A stretch of DNA of 33,978 nt, from IMG/VR virus record IMGVR_UViG_3300029868_000015; one strand, given 5' to 3'. Shown in pieces: positions 6,501 through 33,978 of the stretch. A program made the position numbers and the translations under genes. This DNA comes from a virus. Every line of letters begins with the position of its first letter. Positions within the stretch are counted from its first letter, which is position 1. The notes beneath the pieces are model-generated. The model searched no databases, was not told the origin of the DNA, and saw nothing but the letters and a program-made list of their open reading frames with translations.

Positions 6501-7176
6501 AATCGGTAGTACCGAGGTTCCTTCAACTGTTGTAGGTAATGAGAACGAAACAGCAAAACAATCTTTAGCGCTTGCCAACCGGGCGCTAAGGGAGACCGCT
6601 AAACGTACTAAGTGGGAATTGCTGACCAGAACAGAGACTATCACAACGGTTGCCAGTCAAGCAGAGTATGACCTCCCCTCTGATTTCAAATCAATTCACA
6701 ATCAAACAATGTGGAACACCAGCCAGCGCAGGCCAACGCAGGCAGTGACGCCACAAGCATGGTCTTTCCTGCAAGCGTTCACTGACGTTAGCGGCATTAT
6801 CCTGCATTATAGAATTTTCCGTGATCCATCCGGAAACGGTCAAAAGGTGCAATTCTTTCCAACTCCAGGCGCAGGCCAAGTCATAACATACGAATATGTA
6901 TCTAATGGATTGGTGCAATCGGCTGCCGGAGTGTTGCAGGAAGAGTTCCTTGCGGATTCAGACACAGCATTGCTTGATGAAGACACAATTGCTTTAGGTT
7001 TAAAGTGGCGATTTGAATCGGCAAAAGGTTTCCCATATGCAGAATCTTTACAGGATTATGAGAAAGCCATTGCATATGATGTAGACGCAACACCTAGCCA
7101 AATCGTTAACATGGGCGGCGGGAATAGACGCTTGCGTACAGTGCTTATTGTTCCAGATTCGATAGTTGGCTCATGA
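6463..7176 (+). CDS. Head-to-tail adaptor (candidate, P22 gp4 position)
   Basis: 237 aa ORF that overlaps the previous gene by 38 nt. Call rests on synteny only. Confidence 0.4.
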   Translation: MTLLTIVKTALNEIGSTEVPSTVVGNENETAKQSLALANRALRETAKRTKWELLTRTETITTVASQAEYDLPSDFKSIHNQTMWNTSQRRPTQAVTPQAWSFLQAFTDVSGIILHYRIFRDPSGNGQKVQFFPTPGAGQVITYEYVSNGLVQSAAGVLQEEFLADSDTALLDEDTIALGLKWRFESAKGFPYAESLQDYEKAIAYDVDATPSQIVNMGGGNRRLRTVLIVPDSIVGS

Positions 7177-18366: not shown

Positions 18367-18782
18367 CACGTCTCTCCCTCGACAGGTGATAGGGGTGAGT
18401 TGGCAGGATTTCCAAAGGCGGCTTGTGCGGCCTCAGTAACGGGCGTCATAGCTTCGCCATAACCCCAAACATCACCGCGCCAGTCTTTAAAGTTTCTGAA
18501 ATAATTTAAATTCACCGGCTTACCCTTTCGAATGTAGTCGGTGAACATTTTGACAATACTTTGAAGCGTTCCGCCGTTGGTGAAACCCTTATGCCAATTG
18601 TTCATGCCTGTTAGATAAATTGCCTTATTGGTATATTCATCACGCCATCTAAGATGGCCATCAAACCCAAGGAAAAAATGACCGTAGCGATCAAACTTTT
18701 TGCTGTAGAAAAACCGGCGACCATTATCGGCCATGACACGTATGAAGGTGTTCACCTGCTTTATGCGATCCGCTTTATTCAT
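18366..18782 (-). CDS. Hypothetical protein (138 aa)
   Basis: ATGA overlap with the upstream gene. Aromatic-rich sequence with no family recognised. Confidence 0.55.
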   Translation of the reverse strand: MNKADRIKQVNTFIRVMADNGRRFFYSKKFDRYGHFFLGFDGHLRWRDEYTNKAIYLTGMNNWHKGFTNGGTLQSIVKMFTDYIRKGKPVNLNYFRNFKDWRGDVWGYGEAMTPVTEAAQAAFGNPANSPLSPVEGET

Positions 18783-27043: not shown

Positions 27044-27400
27044 ATGATATTCGAAAGAAAGAGAGTTAGCAAAGATTATTTATACAAGGCAATAGAAACG
27101 CTAAACGGCACATTAAACCGCTATGCGTCGGTAATTGAGATAGCAAAATATTTAAACTGTGAGCCTGAAGCATTATCAAGGCCGCTGCATTTATTGGTGG
27201 CGAAAGGATTAATCAAACATGACATACAAGATGGGTTATTTTTCCGCGTGGTACCGAAGCACTTTGTTAAGGCGAAGGCTAAGAAAACTAGAAAAGTTGG
27301 TAGACCGCTTAGCAAGAAAGATGCAAACGGAAAGCTAATACACCTTAAAAGATACAACGAATATGGGCTTAAGATAATTCAAGGGCATGTTGTATTATAG
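27044..27400 (+). CDS. Winged-helix DNA-binding protein with a basic C-terminal region (late regulator candidate)
   Basis: YASVIEIAKYLNCEPEALSRPLHLLVAKGLI is wHTH-like. It is followed by KAKAKKTRKVGRPLSKK. This is the last gene before the tailspike cluster. Confidence 0.45.
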   Translation: MIFERKRVSKDYLYKAIETLNGTLNRYASVIEIAKYLNCEPEALSRPLHLLVAKGLIKHDIQDGLFFRVVPKHFVKAKAKKTRKVGRPLSKKDANGKLIHLKRYNEYGLKIIQGHVVL

Positions 27401-27484: not shown

Positions 27485-28726
27485 ATGAGGCGAGACGTTA
27501 TATTGGAAACAATCATGACGGTATACCAATTCGTAGGCGGTGAACTCGCTTCAAGTAGTGATACAGAGATACTAGTGCAGAAAGCCTCCGACCTAGCAGG
27601 TACACTAAGGAGCGACGTTGCCTATTTAATTGACGGCAGCATTGATATGGGTAGCCAATCCATAATAGTTCCGCAGGGTGGTTTAACCTTGATGGGGAAT
27701 GGTTTCAATATCGCACAGCTAACAACCAGCGTAACCAACGCAACTCTATTTGTAGACGATGGTGTTTTTGCTGGAGATTTATTCCTTCGCATGATGGATA
27801 TTGAAGTTACAGGAACCGGCGCGAAAGTGTTTGACCTAGATAATAACGAAAATTCTGACGCGATAGAATTTGACGCTGTTAACTTCAATAATTGCACAAG
27901 CCTTGGTTCAATGGATAGCTACAGGCAGCTACTTGCGAGAAACGTTGCATTCTTTGCCCCTGCTGACGGGCTGGAATTTATCGGCCCGTGGTCCGGTGGT
28001 TTAGCTATTGTTGACACAATTGTAATTCTATTGCCATCTGGCGCAACATTATTTAAAGCTGGTACGGGTTTCCTTGTGGGCGCAAGTGTTCGCTCAGATA
28101 TGAACGCGTTATCAGTAGATGCCAGTTCAACTATATTTGACTTTGCACCATCTAACATCACCCCTGATGGTGGGTTCTCATTAAGCAACTTCAGAACAGC
28201 CGCAGACGATGCATTGCCTAATTTCCCCTCTTCTAGTGTGAAGGCTAATTTCTCAAACTGTATTGGTATTAGTAACACATTCCCTGGCGGCAACTGGTCT
28301 ATATCCAGCGCTGCAACAACCACAATCGGAATGGTTGACACATTAGTTAAGCTTGCAGGAACCACCACATACAACGGGTTGCAGTGGTTTACAGGTTCGA
28401 ACAACAATGAGTTTGTTTTTGAGTCCACACAGGAAATTGACATTGTTGTTTCTGGTATATTGACCTTCACAGGCGGCGCTAACGATGAGATGGCCGTGCA
28501 GATACGAAGGTTTGACGATAGCGCAAGTTCATACGTAAATGTAGGTTCAGAGTTTAGCACTACTATCAGTTCAGGAGGCAGGGCCTCAAATTTACCGTTT
28601 AGAGGTGTAACAACCGTAGCAGAGAATGACCGTATTGAAGTATGGGTTAAGAACCTGACGGATGACACAGATATAACTGGATCAGTCGGCGGTAGTGTAG
28701 CCATTGGCGAGCGCTCATCTGTATAG
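27485..28726 (+). CDS. Tailspike / receptor-binding protein with a beta-helix-like repeat pattern
   Basis: About 400 aa, rich in G/N/S/T/V/I beta-strand periodicity (…IIVPQGGLTLMGNGFNIAQL…IEVTGTGAKVFDLDN…AVNFNNCTSLG…). The start is uncertain, with ATG 27515 as an alternative. Confidence 0.5.
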   Translation: MRRDVILETIMTVYQFVGGELASSSDTEILVQKASDLAGTLRSDVAYLIDGSIDMGSQSIIVPQGGLTLMGNGFNIAQLTTSVTNATLFVDDGVFAGDLFLRMMDIEVTGTGAKVFDLDNNENSDAIEFDAVNFNNCTSLGSMDSYRQLLARNVAFFAPADGLEFIGPWSGGLAIVDTIVILLPSGATLFKAGTGFLVGASVRSDMNALSVDASSTIFDFAPSNITPDGGFSLSNFRTAADDALPNFPSSSVKANFSNCIGISNTFPGGNWSISSAATTTIGMVDTLVKLAGTTTYNGLQWFTGSNNNEFVFESTQEIDIVVSGILTFTGGANDEMAVQIRRFDDSASSYVNVGSEFSTTISSGGRASNLPFRGVTTVAENDRIEVWVKNLTDDTDITGSVGGSVAIGERSSV

Positions 28727-29523: not shown

Positions 29524-29751
29524 GTGGGCGAGACAGTGATAAGCGACGGCAAGACCTTCCACTGCCTCTGCATGAGCGGCGCAGGGACAAGTGAGTGCAC
29601 AGAAATCACAGCATTAGGCGTAATAGGCGGCGGAGTTATAATTCGCACGAAGACAACTACAGCAAAAACAGTAGCCGAAGCACTCACTCACCTACCCGGC
29701 GCACACCTCACTGAAGACAACGGCATTATAGCTATTAGCGGTGAAGCGTAA
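29524..29751 (+). CDS. Hypothetical protein (75 aa)
   Basis: GTG start, with a TAATG overlap into terS. Confidence 0.4.
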   Translation: MGETVISDGKTFHCLCMSGAGTSECTEITALGVIGGGVIIRTKTTTAKTVAEALTHLPGAHLTEDNGIIAISGEA

Positions 29752-30167
29752 TGACAGGCAGACCCTCCGCATACACCAAAGAACTAGGTGATGAGATCCT
29801 AGTACGCATATCAGCAGGTGAGAAGATTACTCACATCGCACACGATAAACATATGCCAGCGTTATCAACAATATATTTGTGGAAGTCAGCACAAGAAGGC
29901 TTTTCGGAAGCTTTCGCACATGCGCGAGATGAAGGATGTGATGCAATATCCTTCCAAGCCCTTGAAATTGCTGATGATGTTGACATAGACCCTGCACACA
30001 AGCGGGTTATGGTTGACACTAGATTGAAGCTCTTGGGCATGTGGAGCAACCGCTACAGCGCCAAGCAATCCATAGACCACACCACAGCAGGCAAAGAGAT
30101 AAAGCCCGCACAGCAAGCTAGTACAGCAGAGCTTGAGGCCCTTATAGCCTCACACATGAAGAAGTAG
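29751..30167 (+). CDS. terS: Terminase small subunit
   Basis: GRPSAYTKELGDEILVRISAGEKITHIAHDKHMPALSTIYLWKSAQEGFSEAFAHARDEG...IADDVD...RLKLLGMWSNRYS matches the recalled TerS pattern GRP.kYt.e.a..Ic..la.G.sl..ic.....P...tv..W......F...y..Ar. Confidence 0.75.
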   Translation: MTGRPSAYTKELGDEILVRISAGEKITHIAHDKHMPALSTIYLWKSAQEGFSEAFAHARDEGCDAISFQALEIADDVDIDPAHKRVMVDTRLKLLGMWSNRYSAKQSIDHTTAGKEIKPAQQASTAELEALIASHMKK

Positions 30168-30194
30168 GCTAAGGGTTGTCCCCCTTAAAAGCGC

Positions 30195-30225
30195 GTTCCC
30201 GTCCGTGTAGCCGAAGGCGGGGAAC
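30195..30225 (+). other. Imperfect hairpin after terS (part of repeated element X1)
   Basis: GTTCCC (30195-200) pairs with GGGAAC (30220-25). An inner stem GCC-gaa-GGC is also present. Confidence 0.5.
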
Positions 30226-30565: not shown

Positions 30566-30982
30566 ATGAGAAGCACATCAAAGAACGACATTACATTCTC
30601 TGTGAACAAGGACGGCGATAATAACCGCTTTTGGGCTGGCAATTACAAGGTTGTCTGCAAAAAAGGTGAGGATTTCCAATGGGGTCCGGCTGATTTCACC
30701 TTTCAACTGGTAGACATGACATTCGAGGCAGACCCTAGCATGGACGGTACGCATGTGTTTATTATCAACTGGGCTGTAGCATCTAAAGACATAATGAAAC
30801 CTATAGAGATAGCCGGCCCAGAGGTGCCTGATGCAGGCCGTGACTTCATGATAGGTGAGGACTTCACGCTAGACGATCTAAACAAGCAGCTAGCACCACT
30901 CCTTACCTTTGACCGTGCAGACGCTAACTTAATGCTAGAGATGGTTAAACATCTTGGCGGTCCAGATATTACAATAGGCTAA
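30566..30982 (+). CDS. Hypothetical protein (138 aa)
   Basis: ORF in the track with the SD-like aagggcgg upstream. Confidence 0.55.
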   Translation: MRSTSKNDITFSVNKDGDNNRFWAGNYKVVCKKGEDFQWGPADFTFQLVDMTFEADPSMDGTHVFIINWAVASKDIMKPIEIAGPEVPDAGRDFMIGEDFTLDDLNKQLAPLLTFDRADANLMLEMVKHLGGPDITIG

Positions 30983-31041
30983 GGGCGACGGCATAGCGTC
31001 CTCGTATGCACCTCCGCAGTGTTAGCCGAAGCGGGAAGATT

Positions 31042-31066
31042 AAGCCTCTCACGGGGCTTTTTCTTT
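31042..31066 (+). terminator. Intrinsic terminator candidate
   Basis: The stem AAGCCTC / GGGGCTT (31042-48 and 31053-59, 7 bp including one G-U pair) has the loop TCAC and runs into TTTTTCTTT. Confidence 0.6.
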
Positions 31067-31070
31067 GTCT

Positions 31071-31490
31071 GCCGTGCAAGTATCTTATAGGATATTAAAG
31101 ATATAACCCGCTGTAAGACCGGAAAGCATCAGAAATCTTTTAGATTGCCCTTGTATTCCTGTTTTGAAGGCGTATATTAGGATGGTAACGAGCGGCGTTG
31201 AAAGTAGAAACGCAGTAGGTTTGTGAGAGGGTAAGCATCCTTTGGGCGATGCAGGGTTGCCGATGAATGGATCGAAGCCATACTGATGACCACAATACGG
31301 AGGCAGCAAGCCCTAGTAACGCGGGGCCTCGTTACAAGTTCTGAGTATGTATTGAGTAAGGTGTGTGCAGATGATCAGATACCAGAGGAAGTAGGCAAAA
31401 TAGCGATAGCATTAGCCTGACCGGAAGCCAGAGACTGTTCATTAATGCCGGGCCGCACACCGCTCACCACATCAAACACAGAGGCGAGAC
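31071..31490 (+). other. 420-nt noncoding, stem-rich region between terS and terL (candidate structured RNA, promoter/leader or packaging-related site)
   Basis: No credible ORF on either strand. Five or more stems were read by eye. Promoter candidate: TTGTAT (31151-56), 16-nt spacer, TATATT (31173-78). Confidence 0.4.
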
Positions 31491-31814
31491 ATGAGTGACT
31501 TTGAGACAGATGATTTTGAAATGTATTGGGACCCTGATGGGCTTGGTGTAAGCGTACGTGATTATGAGGGGTCGGCGTTCGCTCTACTCACTAGAGATGA
31601 GTCTAGGTGGCTCCTAGGGTGGCTACAGGCCAACCAACATGAAGACAATCACGAATACAAGCTAGGCGACAAGGGCCTCACCACCAGAGGCATTGCATAC
31701 GAGATCGTAGCTACAGATCCTGTGCGTGTCCACATGGGAGGCAATGACATGCAGCTAGAGGGTATGAAAATAGAGCTGCTGCCACCTACGGGAAATGTAG
31801 CAGACGGGGATTAA
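31491..31814 (+). CDS. Strongly acidic hypothetical protein (107 aa)
   Basis: ATG immediately follows GAGGCGAGAC, the same leader as terL. Rich in D/E. Confidence 0.55.
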   Translation: MSDFETDDFEMYWDPDGLGVSVRDYEGSAFALLTRDESRWLLGWLQANQHEDNHEYKLGDKGLTTRGIAYEIVATDPVRVHMGGNDMQLEGMKIELLPPTGNVADGD

Positions 31815-31827
31815 TGGGAGAGAGGCG

Positions 31828-31992
31828 ATGAGTATAGTTACATGTGTGCGTGATTGGCACAGGCGGGGCATATTTCACGAAGACCTGAATACAAGCAATC
31901 ATGACGGCTGCGACTTGGTTATGACTAATGACGGGCGGATGGTTCGCAATTACGATGTGATTTACAAGAACGCATGGAACATCAAGCGATGA
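31828..31992 (+). CDS. Small hypothetical protein (54 aa)
   Basis: Hand-translated as MSIVTCVRDWHRRGIFHEDLNTSNHDGCDLVMTNDGRMVRNYDVIYKNAWNIKR. The SD is GAGAGG. Confidence 0.4.
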   Translation: MSIVTCVRDWHRRGIFHEDLNTSNHDGCDLVMTNDGRMVRNYDVIYKNAWNIKR

Positions 31993-32174
31993 CCTTTGTA
32001 GACAAGCTAGCAGAAGCAGGCTTCACCAGTAAGCGCCAGTTTGCCATGTACGTTAATTACACACCGCAGGCCGTGAGCGATTGGAAAGAGAAGCCCCCGC
32101 ACTGGGCGCACATCATCTTGGATGACCGCATAAGAGACCAGGTATTGATCAAACTCATACAGCAGGGGTTATAA
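31989..32174 (+). CDS. Small HTH DNA-binding protein (Cro/YdaS-like)
   Basis: ATG 31989 is in an ATGA overlap. FTSKRQFAMYVNYTPQAVSDWKEKPP fits an HTH pattern. Confidence 0.5.
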   Translation: MTFVDKLAEAGFTSKRQFAMYVNYTPQAVSDWKEKPPHWAHIILDDRIRDQVLIKLIQQGL

Positions 32175-32341
32175 TGGACTATTCAACATACGTTCTATTC
32201 ATTGCCATAGTAGCCATTGGCTTCATCAACTACGAGCAAACAGCCCACCGCAGCTTTTGGCGCATAATCGAAACTCAAGTGTTGTTCACGTGCTTTTTAA
32301 TCATAGCGTGGTTATGCTGGCAGGTGGCTTGGTTTGATTGA
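32174..32341 (+). CDS. Small two-TM membrane protein (55 aa)
   Basis: Hand-translated as MDYSTYVLFIAIVAIGFINYEQTAHRSFWRIIETQVLFTCFLIIAWLCWQVAWFD. A TAATG overlap joins it to the upstream gene. Confidence 0.45.
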   Translation: MDYSTYVLFIAIVAIGFINYEQTAHRSFWRIIETQVLFTCFLIIAWLCWQVAWFD

Positions 32342-32342
32342 T

Positions 32343-32831
32343 ATGAAACTATTAGCTTTATTGCTGATGTTAAGTGCCTGCGCTGTATATCCGCAGTCTG
32401 ATGCAGTTAGGGGCGTTGCGAGGGCTGAGTTGATCCCAGGTGCCGTGAGGCCTTCCAACATATACGAGTTAGAGCATACGATTGAGGCTTATGATTGTCT
32501 TGGTGGGTGGTCTCACCAGTTTAAAAATCTAGCCGACTATGCAGTGAAGACCGGAAAAATGGTAAGATGGCACGGTAACGTTTTCAGCGCCTGTACTGTA
32601 ATGGCCGACAGGATACGGGATAAGGGCGGCAATCAGTGCCTTGTGTCTAATCGGGTTAATTTCGGATACCATCAGGCCCGTGATAATGCAGGAAACTATA
32701 GCTCAAACATAAGTTACCGAGATGATACAAAAGCATGGATCAAAAAACAGGGCGGCATGAAAAAAGGCAACAACCTGTTAATCATGAAGGGTGCAGAGCT
32801 GCTAAAGTTCTACAAGATGTGCAATGGTTAA
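32343..32831 (+). CDS. Lipoprotein (162 aa), function unknown
   Basis: MKLLALLLMLSAC has a signal peptide and a lipobox (L-S-A-C). The track start 32334 is an upstream TTG. Confidence 0.6.
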   Translation: MKLLALLLMLSACAVYPQSDAVRGVARAELIPGAVRPSNIYELEHTIEAYDCLGGWSHQFKNLADYAVKTGKMVRWHGNVFSACTVMADRIRDKGGNQCLVSNRVNFGYHQARDNAGNYSSNISYRDDTKAWIKKQGGMKKGNNLLIMKGAELLKFYKMCNG

Positions 32832-33045
32832 AGTTGGAGACAAAATAGAATGCTGCGGTAATCACATGATAACCATGATTAAGCCGGTTAAAAGCTGTGA
32901 ACCGCTAATCGCTCATAAATGGGCTTATGCTAACGGTGATGTCATTAAGTTTGGCGAAGCTATCAAGATGTGCCCGACTTGCGGTAATATGGATTGGTTT
33001 AATTTACTGCGATTAAGGATCGGTGACGAGAATAAAGATGTGTGA
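32824..33045 (+). CDS. Small Cys-rich (zinc-ribbon-like) protein (73 aa)
   Basis: Contains CC at residues 10-11 and CPTC near the C-terminus. Confidence 0.5.
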   Translation: MVKVGDKIECCGNHMITMIKPVKSCEPLIAHKWAYANGDVIKFGEAIKMCPTCGNMDWFNLLRLRIGDENKDV

Positions 33046-33120
33046 ATAGAGCATTACTAAATAAACTCTTTGGGTTGGCGCTAGGTGATATATACTAGTG
33101 TCAACACATGGAGGCGAGAC

Positions 33121-33978
33121 ATGAACATAGAAGAAGCAGCTAAAGAGCTGTTGAGGCGCAGGCGGGCAGAGGCAGGCCTGATAGATTTCACACGGTATAC
33201 ATTCCCAAAGTACCGACCTGCCGACCACCATTTCCAAATAGCGGCAAAACTTGAAGCTGTAGAGCGTGGCGACATTAAACGCCTGATGATATTTATGCCA
33301 CCTCGTCACGGTAAGAGTGAGCTAGCATCAAAGCGCTTCCCTGCATGGTGCCTTGGCCGTGATCCAGATAAGAACTTCATATCAGCATCATACAACTCAG
33401 AGCTTGCTGGTGATTTTGGCCGTGAGGTTAGAAACATCATTCAAGAGGAAGAATATGCAAACCTGTTTCCGAATACCAGCATTGCAAAGGATAGCGGATC
33501 TGCACCACGCTGGCACACTAACGGGCTAGGTGGATATGTTGCGGCGGGTATTGGTACAGCGGTTACAGGCCGGGGCGCTCACATCTTCACCATTGATGAC
33601 CCGATTAAAGACAGAGAACAGGCAGAGAGCGAAACCCAACGGCGCAGAATTTACGACTGGTACAAGTCAACAGCCTACACACGCCTGGAATCAGAACTAA
33701 GCGGTGAAGTAACAGAGGAAGACCTGTTTTGGGACGTGTCTGCATCACTTAGGGAAGGGTTAATCAAGCCATTCGAGGGCGCAATCGTTCTAATTCAAAC
33801 ACGATGGCATGAAGACGATCTAGCAGGCAAGCTGATAACCGACATGGAGAACGGGGCGGATCAGTGGGAAATACTAGACCTTCCAGCAATACAGGACAAT
33901 CAAGCGCTATGGCCTTCAAAGTACCCACTTGATAAGCTCCAGAAGATTAAAGCCGCAATTGGTGCAAGGGAATGGTCG
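33121..33978 (+). CDS. terL: Terminase large subunit, N-terminal (ATPase) part. It is open to the window end and continues at 120..791.
   Basis: Hand-translated as MNIEEAAKELLRRRRAEAGLIDFTRYTFPKYRPADHHFQIAAKLEAVERGDIKRLMIFMPPRHGKSELAS.... Walker A-like PRHGKS, Walker B-like HIFTIDDP, and TRWHEDDL are present. There is no stop before the end of the window. Confidence 0.9.
   Translation, partial: MNIEEAAKELLRRRRAEAGLIDFTRYTFPKYRPADHHFQIAAKLEAVERGDIKRLMIFMPPRHGKSELASKRFPAWCLGRDPDKNFISASYNSELAGDFGREVRNIIQEEEYANLFPNTSIAKDSGSAPRWHTNGLGGYVAAGIGTAVTGRGAHIFTIDDPIKDREQAESETQRRRIYDWYKSTAYTRLESELSGEVTEEDLFWDVSASLREGLIKPFEGAIVLIQTRWHEDDLAGKLITDMENGADQWEILDLPAIQDNQALWPSKYPLDKLQKIKAAIGAREWS
33860..33978. 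repeat. Terminal direct repeat, right copy (identical to 1..119)
   Basis: Read directly. Confidence 0.95.

Follow-up and report, generated by a model that had tools for sequence, protein, structure and literature searches.

The window, meaning the whole 33,978-nt stretch of viral DNA analysed here, is a circularly assembled phage contig of ~33.86 kb, with bases 1-119 repeated at 33860-33978. The same phage has also been assembled in ENA metagenomes. terS lies at 29751-30167 (phrog_1482; PF20901, Sf6_terminase), and terL (phrog_38) starts at 33121 and wraps round the contig end. The ~2.95-kb interval between them contains ORF103, ORF138, a gap (30983-31490) and six small ORFs. For the six small ORFs, Pfam, PHROGs and PADLOC give no significant family. 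None of the eight ORFs in this interval encodes a reverse transcriptase or has any other significant Pfam match, so the locus does not qualify as a retron msr-msd. In distant terL relatives (55-66% identity) where terS is still recognisable, terS directly abuts terL. The split layout, including the long gap, is also present in L084, the closest relative with a long contig. The features of the gap and its borders are as follows.

31042 to 31068, + strand: intrinsic terminator, a seven-pair stem (31042-31059) followed by the tail TTTTTCTTTG
31069 to 31150, no strand assigned: upstream block of ~80 bp with the dyads TATC-N6-GATA (31081-94) and AATCT-TTT-AGATT (31134-46)
31085 to 31309, minus strand: a 74-aa ORF judged spurious
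31151 to 31178, + strand: sigma-70-type promoter TTGTAT-N16-TATATT, with a predicted transcription start near 31185
31185 to 31335, + strand: domain 1, a predicted structured RNA made of P1, a CG linker, H1, a variable middle and H2
31185 to 31192 with 31328 to 31335: P1, the 8-bp closing helix, GTAACGAG with CTCGTTAC
31195 to 31213: H1, with loop GAAAGUAGA
31214 to 31309: variable middle
31310 to 31327: H2, with loop AGUAACGC, abutting P1
31352 to 31467, + strand: domain 2, a second predicted closed module, whose helix P2 encloses ~86 nt
31352 to 31357 and 31360 to 31367 with 31454 to 31461 and 31462 to 31467: predicted helix P2
31481 to 31493, + strand: ribosome-binding-site/start junction GAGGCGAGACATG, repeated at 33111-33123, the terL start
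31491 to 31814, + strand: ORF107, the first gene past the leader, known only in the window phage and G001

The long noncoding gap between terS and terL, directly after a terminator, was reported in a preliminary description of this DNA; the gap is real, and everything listed in that description is present in the sequence. The minus-strand ORF was rightly regarded there as spurious. Specifically, it has no match in Pfam or PADLOC and no IMG/VR relatives, and the homologous frame is interrupted by stops in L084 and L094. A 44-aa ORF on the + strand (31286-31420) was rejected, a stop codon interrupting it in L084.

Five relatives were informative for the gap.

L084 / L088: JGI 3300023443; TerS 66% identical
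G001 / L087: IMG/VR 3300029867_000009, 36.8 kb; TerS 30% identical
L094: Logan contig; terminator, upstream block and promoter as in the window (96.6%), followed by another, shorter leader; terS lies off the contig
L096: TerS 67% identical; same promoter type as the window; leader of 340 nt
L083: TerS 84% identical; promoter followed by 24 nt only

Poor conservation in relatives had been named as a finding that would speak against a functional gap. The gap aligns with L084 and G001: window 31041-31471 is 75% identical to L084, about equal to the match of the terS gene, and window 31171-31815 is 77% identical to G001. Conservation is strongly modular, with sub-blocks of the gap 92-99% identical versus 66-77% for the flanking genes. 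The block from the −35 hexamer to the end of H1 is 81% identical in G001 and 84% in L084; the variable middle (31214-31309) falls to 53% and 56% and is essentially unalignable; the block containing H2 and the 3' strand of P1 (31310-31335) rises to 96% and 92%; and the block containing domain 2 (31336-31480) reaches 98.6% and 89.8%.

In the right half of the window, the + strand has no good terminator other than that at 31042-31068, which L084 and L094 retain with loops of other sequence. It probably closes the tailspike-terS-ORF103-ORF138 transcript. The adjoining upstream block is conserved in L084 and L094 and missing from G001, L083 and L096. It contains 'copy B' of a shared repeat (31110-50). 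The stem TATCTT/AAGATA (31081-103) proposed in this block is not kept in L084, a TATC-N6-GATA dyad is kept, and the proposed stem AATCT/AGATT exists as a DNA dyad abutting the −35 hexamer, 5' of the transcript. Because the block lies 5' of the transcript, its role, if any, is at the DNA level; a regulator site may be conjectured.

The promoter candidate of the preliminary description, TTGTAT-N16-TATATT, has gained support, the same hexamers and spacing being positionally conserved in relatives. Specifically, TTGnnn-N16-TATATT occurs at the homologous place in six phages (the window phage, L084, G001, L094, L096 and L083) with divergent spacers. The full pattern TTGTAT-N16-TATATT occurs just twice in the window; the other occurrence is the rightward switch promoter (21821-48), which has the same −10 hexamer. 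The leader, previously put at about 300 nt, measures ~306 nt from the start near 31185 to junction GAGGCGAGACATG.

Domain 1 belongs to a family of motifs in which a closing helix (P1) of 7-8 bp leads through a CG linker to H1, whose 5-bp stem bears the loop GAAAGYAGA; H2, also with a 5-bp stem, carries the loop AKUARCGM and abuts P1. The stretch between H1 and H2 is hypervariable, 56-150 nt across members. R1, a small covariance model built on the −10-to-H1 region, detected a copy in a far more distant phage (L059; 35.6 bits), and comparison with it revealed the full architecture. The second model, R2, found a copy in a 52-kb phage (G013; 27 bits). The window itself scores 121.7 bits with R2 over 31183-31337, with 18 of 18 helix pairs formed. 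In total, the architecture is present in at least seven phage lineages, including cultured cyanophages, with different helix sequences. Besides the window, the carriers are four contigs from IMG/VR or JGI, one from Logan and two Synechococcus phages in culture, and the family has seven distinct sequences.

The structure of domain 1 is defined by compensatory change in all three helices. P1 is wholly different in sequence between lineages, being GUAACGAG / CUCGUUAC in the window, L084 and G001, GGUGAG / CUCACC in L096, UUUGAGAGUGG / CCACUCUCAAA in L059, GCUGCGG / CCGCAGC in Synechococcus phage Ssp-JY40, and CAGGACGG / CCGUCCUG in G013. H1 keeps its loop GAAAGYAGA over a 5-bp stem that changes among U-A, U.G, C-G and G-C; the stem GCGTT/AACGC (31195-213), read by eye in the earlier work, is this helix and is confirmed by the covariation. 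H2 keeps its loop A(G/U)UA(A/G)CG(C/A) on the stems GCCCU, GCCUC, GCCUU, GCAGG, GCCAG, GCGGG and GCCGG, each with a matching partner. In a MAFFT alignment of six sequences (A7), 98.1% of cells are paired and 10 of 18 pairs show compensatory changes (shuffles 0/500; slid controls 38-47%). In a model-aligned set of seven sequences (A8), the paired fraction of cells is 98.6%, with compensatory changes at 13 of 20 pairs (shuffles 0/500; slid controls 37-48%), although there are fewer independent events than the counted cells suggest, because three of the seven distinct sequences have the same P1 and H2 loop. Among the pairs counted in A8 is a covarying loop-loop pair, in which position 6 of the H1 loop and position 5 of the H2 loop are U-A in four sequences and C-G in three. 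Unconstrained minimum-energy folding recovers P1 in five of five sequences and both H1 and H2 in L059, L096 and G001.

Two of the other stems read by eye fare differently. GTAACG/CGTTAC (31316-35) is probably non-native and is better explained by the H2 loop together with the 3' strand of P1, since CTCGTTAC pairs with GTAACGAG, and GCATC/GATGC falls in the hypervariable part and is not conserved.

The strand of the RNA and its 5' end can be assigned from the same comparison. H1 of L084 and H2 of the window, L084 and G001 contain G.U pairs, which on the minus strand would be A.C mismatches; thus, domain 1 is read as a + strand RNA. P1 starts 7 nt past the −10 hexamer, at the predicted transcription start, which places the 5' end of the transcript within P1.

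Folding energy does not reveal this structure. Neither the whole gap (z = -0.24, -0.96 for the two strands) nor 31305-31480 folds more stably than shuffled sequence, whichever strand is taken; the evidence for structure is therefore the comparison with relatives, and from the window alone the finding would look weak. The proposed search of Rfam returned no family at the gathering score over the whole window (Rfam 15), and matches at E up to 10 in 30900-31600 are noise. Rfam also has no match to the motif in L084, L096, L098, L100 and L101, ARAGORN detects no tRNA or tmRNA gene over the window, and BLAST of the gap against GenBank phages gives nothing at 1e-5. Judged from sequence comparison, domain 1 very probably represents a folded-RNA family uncatalogued so far and absent from Rfam.

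Helix covariation with G.U pairs points to RNA rather than double-stranded DNA, which bears directly on an earlier suggestion that the gap is a packaging site, that is, a pac/cos recognition or cleavage site or genome end read as DNA by terminase. The suggestion has some appeal, as the motif adjoins terminase or portal genes in six of eight carriers, and the circular record of Synechococcus phage Yong-M3-232 (OM868076.1, position 1; L099/L106) opens inside the motif, just after H1, at ends that may have been mapped or chosen arbitrarily. A pac site is expected to co-occur and co-vary with its cognate TerS. L083, with a TerS that is 84% identical, nevertheless lacks the element, and in L094 of the same clade it is replaced, while domain 2 is near-identical (98.6%) in G001 beside another TerS of only 30% identity. 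The motif follows terL in the cyanophages and lies 14 kb from terL in G013, and the 119-bp circular overlap of the contig is as expected for circular permutation. Phages with Sf6/P22-type TerS package by a headful mechanism from a pac site in or next to terS. The RNA-like covariation, the absence of the element from phages with close TerS, the presence of domain 2 beside an unrelated TerS and the Sf6/P22 pac location together make a packaging-site role highly improbable.

All copies of the motif are on the coding strand, and they usually lie within a packaging/structural gene block or at its head. In L059 it occupies part of a 460-nt gap, upstream of a cluster in which terS and terL accompany a gene for a virion structural protein. 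Used as a BLAST query, the L059 copy identified the cultured Synechococcus phages Ssp-JY40 and Yong-M3-232, in both of which the motif fills a 231-nt gap between terL and portal, inside an operon, where a convincing promoter is absent. In G013 it is upstream of terL. The gene immediately after the motif varies, being ORF107, a 95-aa ORF, portal or a 421-aa ORF. L083 and L094 are without domain 1, Pam1 and MW202426 are without the motif, and phiAO1 gives only a 13-bit noise match. Exact-pattern scans of genome contigs and a viral scan for helix P2 returned nothing, and the single match of an exact-pattern metagenome scan (L089) was attributed to chance. The patchy occurrence and varied contexts across relatives indicate that the motif is sporadic and mobile within the terL lineage, and domain 1 is probably a module that phages can exchange or do without, and not an essential site.

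Directly 5' of the G013 copy there is a sub-threshold match to mmgR/suhB (RF00519; 35.4 bits, cut-off 41) at L101 1713-1791 on the minus strand (G013:C1 ~18409-18487), a hint that the host is alphaproteobacterial and that small RNAs are clustered here.

Downstream of domain 1, the predicted fold of domain 2 pairs the SD-like GAGUAAGGUGUGUG with CGCACACCGCUCA, and the GC-rich tract pointed out in the preliminary description turns out to be the 3' arm of predicted P2. L094 keeps both P2 arms round a different, shorter interior, with one compensatory pair and weak statistics; the closure of domain 2 through P2 is a tentative assignment. A mini-ORF (31370-31393) starts 7 nt past the SD-like AAGGTG in domain 2 and reads MIRYQRK* in both the window and G001. 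It has 12 codons in L084 and is absent in L094, and the peptide is not conserved.

Other modules occupy the same position in other phages. In the six phages, the start codon lies 24, 166, 298, 312, 340 and ~460 nt past the −10 hexamer. The leader of L084 contains an extra ~170 nt (6978-7146), with AACACAG repeats on both sides. This extra stretch would be a third closed RNA module, shut by CUAUACCCGAAGGAU / AUCCUUCGGAUAUAG in a long-range helix (CTATACCCGAAGGAT / ATCCTTCGGATATAG) that is complementary at 14 of 15 positions. In L096, the + strand at 734-816, between the promoter and domain 1, resembles Rfam DUF3800-VII (full-length model; 29.8 bits against a cut-off of 36.2). Relatives thus differ in their modules, and the slot from promoter to junction can be empty or contain up to three closed RNA modules.

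The junction that ends the leader is itself conserved. GAGGCGAGACATG has two exact copies in the window, and its four matches at ≤2 mismatches were reached by 0 of 100 shuffles. One further occurrence, with 2 mismatches, is at 27487-27499. The junction ends the leader in G001, L094, L095, L096 and L083, ahead of unrelated genes, and leaders end in (G)GGCGAGAC(N)ATG irrespective of the gene that follows. Bracketing the block from ORF107 to ORF73, GAGGCGAGACATG behaves as a portable cassette seam. In the simplest history, the ancestral order was promoter, leader, junction and terL, and the ORF107-to-ORF73 cassette entered by recombination at the 13-bp junction.

A second seam is visible upstream. 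The repeat TAGGCTAAGGG...TAGCCGAAG(C)GGG lies on the terS stop (window 30165-30225) and on the ORF138 stop (30975-31040). In L084, terS is followed directly by the terminator, and in L094, ORF103 is present and ORF138 missing; ORF103 and ORF138 thus look like cassettes put in at the repeat.

Such mosaicism raises the question of whether the gap is a recombination scar, a cassette-swap patchwork that is functionless beyond its promoter and owes its identity to recent exchange. The extreme mosaicism with sharp identity breaks fits this account, as do the direct repeats that flank inserts (the two copies of GAGGCGAGACATG, AACACAG round the extra 170 nt of L084, and TAGGCTAAGGG...TAGCCGAAG round ORF103/138) and the fact that L083 functions with a 24-nt leader. 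Scar DNA, however, would not keep three helices by compensatory changes in phages whose terL is only 58-66% identical, and it would not hold a 9-nt and an 8-nt loop nearly invariant. We consider a scar unlikely.

The reading that we favour, with a probability of roughly 60% for the structural and functional parts together, is that the gap is a control region heading the terL/morphogenesis transcription unit, whose leader RNA acts in cis. Of the roles listed in the preliminary description, those of a late-operon leader or small-RNA gene agree best with the data, as the promoter is conserved in position and the leader holds a covariation-supported + strand RNA. Specifically, the upstream transcript would be ended by the terminator, and the conserved sigma-70-like promoter (31151-78) would restart transcription at ~31185. 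The resulting ~306-nt leader would consist of two RNA modules, both closed by long-range helices. Domain 1 would fold co-transcriptionally on the + strand and act on its own transcript. Burial of the 5' end in P1 may protect the RNA from 5'-end-dependent decay, and the two invariant loops may serve as a recognition surface for a protein or for RNA polymerase. In this way, domain 1 would stabilise, process or otherwise tune the long late mRNA. Action in cis that is independent of the next gene fits the varied genes found downstream of the motif. A strictly promoter-proximal function cannot be general, because the cyanophage copies are inside an operon and the G013 copy lies 14 kb from terL.

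A precedent for such a leader is the lambda PR'-6S RNA-tR' region, on which Q acts. Both have a strong, constitutive-looking promoter and a long untranslated leader that heads the late packaging/morphogenesis operon. Similarly, the G001 leader directly follows the last early gene: the homologue of window 27044-27400 is immediately 5' of its promoter. In the window, this last early-right gene encodes a 118-aa protein with weak winged-helix/MarR-like matches, a candidate late regulator. Unlike in lambda, the leader here contains no terminator, and no Q protein is recognisable. A search of the + strand from 31178 to 33121 found no terminator, and a search upstream for a Q-family gene (Pfam, PHROGs) returned only the weak winged-helix matches at 27044-27400. 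Moreover, the conserved part in lambda is a Q-binding/pause element embedded in the promoter, whereas here it is a three-helix RNA fold.

Antitermination, another role on the earlier list, is weakened by the same result, the leader and late operon containing no intrinsic terminator that would call for it. The H1 stem resembles P22 boxB. As a boxB/nut candidate it was rejected: its loop has 9 nt, it occurs once in the window and not after the early promoters, and a + strand boxA is absent. Classical Q- or N-type antitermination is thus not supported. The put RNAs of HK022 (mentioned in PMC9974457), which mediate cis-acting, protein-independent antitermination, offer another comparison, being promoter-proximal, built of two hairpins and active in cis independently of the gene that follows, as domain 1 would be. 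Put RNAs are ~70 nt long with two adjacent stem-loops and, unlike domain 1, have neither a closing helix nor a variable insert. Downstream terminators are not evident here, and an action on RNA polymerase is only putative.

Paired termini, invariant loops and a freely varying middle are also typical of stable RNAs, and domain 1 might instead be cut from the late transcript as a trans-acting small RNA of ~150 nt, serving as a decoy, an anti-defence RNA or a tRNA-shaped mimic. Its target would be a host or phage factor, and the variable middle would be lineage-specific. Domain 1 moves independently of the downstream gene, the motif is within an operon in the cyanophages, and its neighbours include modules like orphan small-RNA motifs, namely DUF3800-VII in L096 and mmgR next to the motif in G013, both sub-threshold. 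Its topology also recalls a tRNA cloverleaf, with an 8-bp closing stem, a 2-nt linker, two 5-bp hairpins, the second of which abuts the stem, and a loop-loop pair. On the other hand, neither a terminator nor a known processing site comes after P1, matches are lacking both from ARAGORN and from the Rfam models for tRNA, tmRNA and Y-RNA, and the H2 loop AGUAACGC is not a T-loop. The longest complementary match of the variable middle to its own genome is 10 nt, and shuffles give 10-14 nt; the middle was accordingly rejected as an antisense guide against the phage's own genome, complementarity being not above chance. A trans-acting RNA is the main rival of the favoured reading, possible though less likely.

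A more specialised version of an acting RNA would make the motif a cofactor or mimic of the packaging machinery, like a pRNA, or a tRNA-shaped punctuation or decoy element processed by RNase P/RNase Z. Either would explain its recurrence beside terS, terL and portal in divergent phages. The phi29 pRNA (RF00044) resembles domain 1 in being phage-encoded and 120-170 nt long, in pairing its 5' end with its 3' end and in having two conserved loops, and domain 1 lies beside terminase/portal genes. The pRNA loops, however, are complementary over 4 nt and form rings, whereas GAAAGUAGA and AGUAACGC share a 2-bp core that is apparently intramolecular. RF00044 does not match domain 1, and the 4-nt intermolecular loop complementarity is absent. 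In addition, phi29 is a terminal-protein system, whereas the domain 1 phages have a TerS/TerL terminase. We regard these cofactor and punctuation roles as quite unlikely and retain the cis-acting leader.

Two further sets of phage RNAs offer a comparison. The orphan motifs of Weinberg et al. 2017 (DUF3800-I to XI, drum, skipping-rope; PMC5737381) are likewise covariation-supported RNAs of phages and prophages, and DUF3800-VII is among those whose function is unknown (PMC5737381). In contrast, the modules of the window match no such model, and a DUF3800 gene is absent nearby. The staphylococcal phage cabRNA is, like domain 1, a structured phage RNA from the terminase gene region (PMC10686824); unlike cabRNA, domain 1 is intergenic, and a sequence relation is not expected.

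Structured late-operon leaders are known from few model phages (lambda, HK022), and the fold of domain 1 is distinct from these. The interval between a fixed promoter and a fixed ribosome-binding junction appears to be a slot for swappable RNA modules, an RNA counterpart of the protein 'morons', and may indicate unrecognised RNA-level control of packaging and late genes, or RNA-level manipulation of the host. Because the motif is present in two cultured phages of Synechococcus PCC 7002, it can be tested at the bench straight away.

The genes around the leader are themselves rarely represented. A search of 5.8 billion proteins with ORF107 gave ORF107 itself as the sole match, and neither ORF107 nor ORF138 has IMG/VR relatives. 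The G001 leader is 2.6 kb upstream of the different TerS type of that phage (30% identity). The G001 homologue of ORF107 (L091 reverse-complement 6624-6967) is split into two overlapping 57-aa ORFs; identity to the window is 42% over the N-terminal half and 81% over the C-terminal half, a mosaic divergence inside one small gene.
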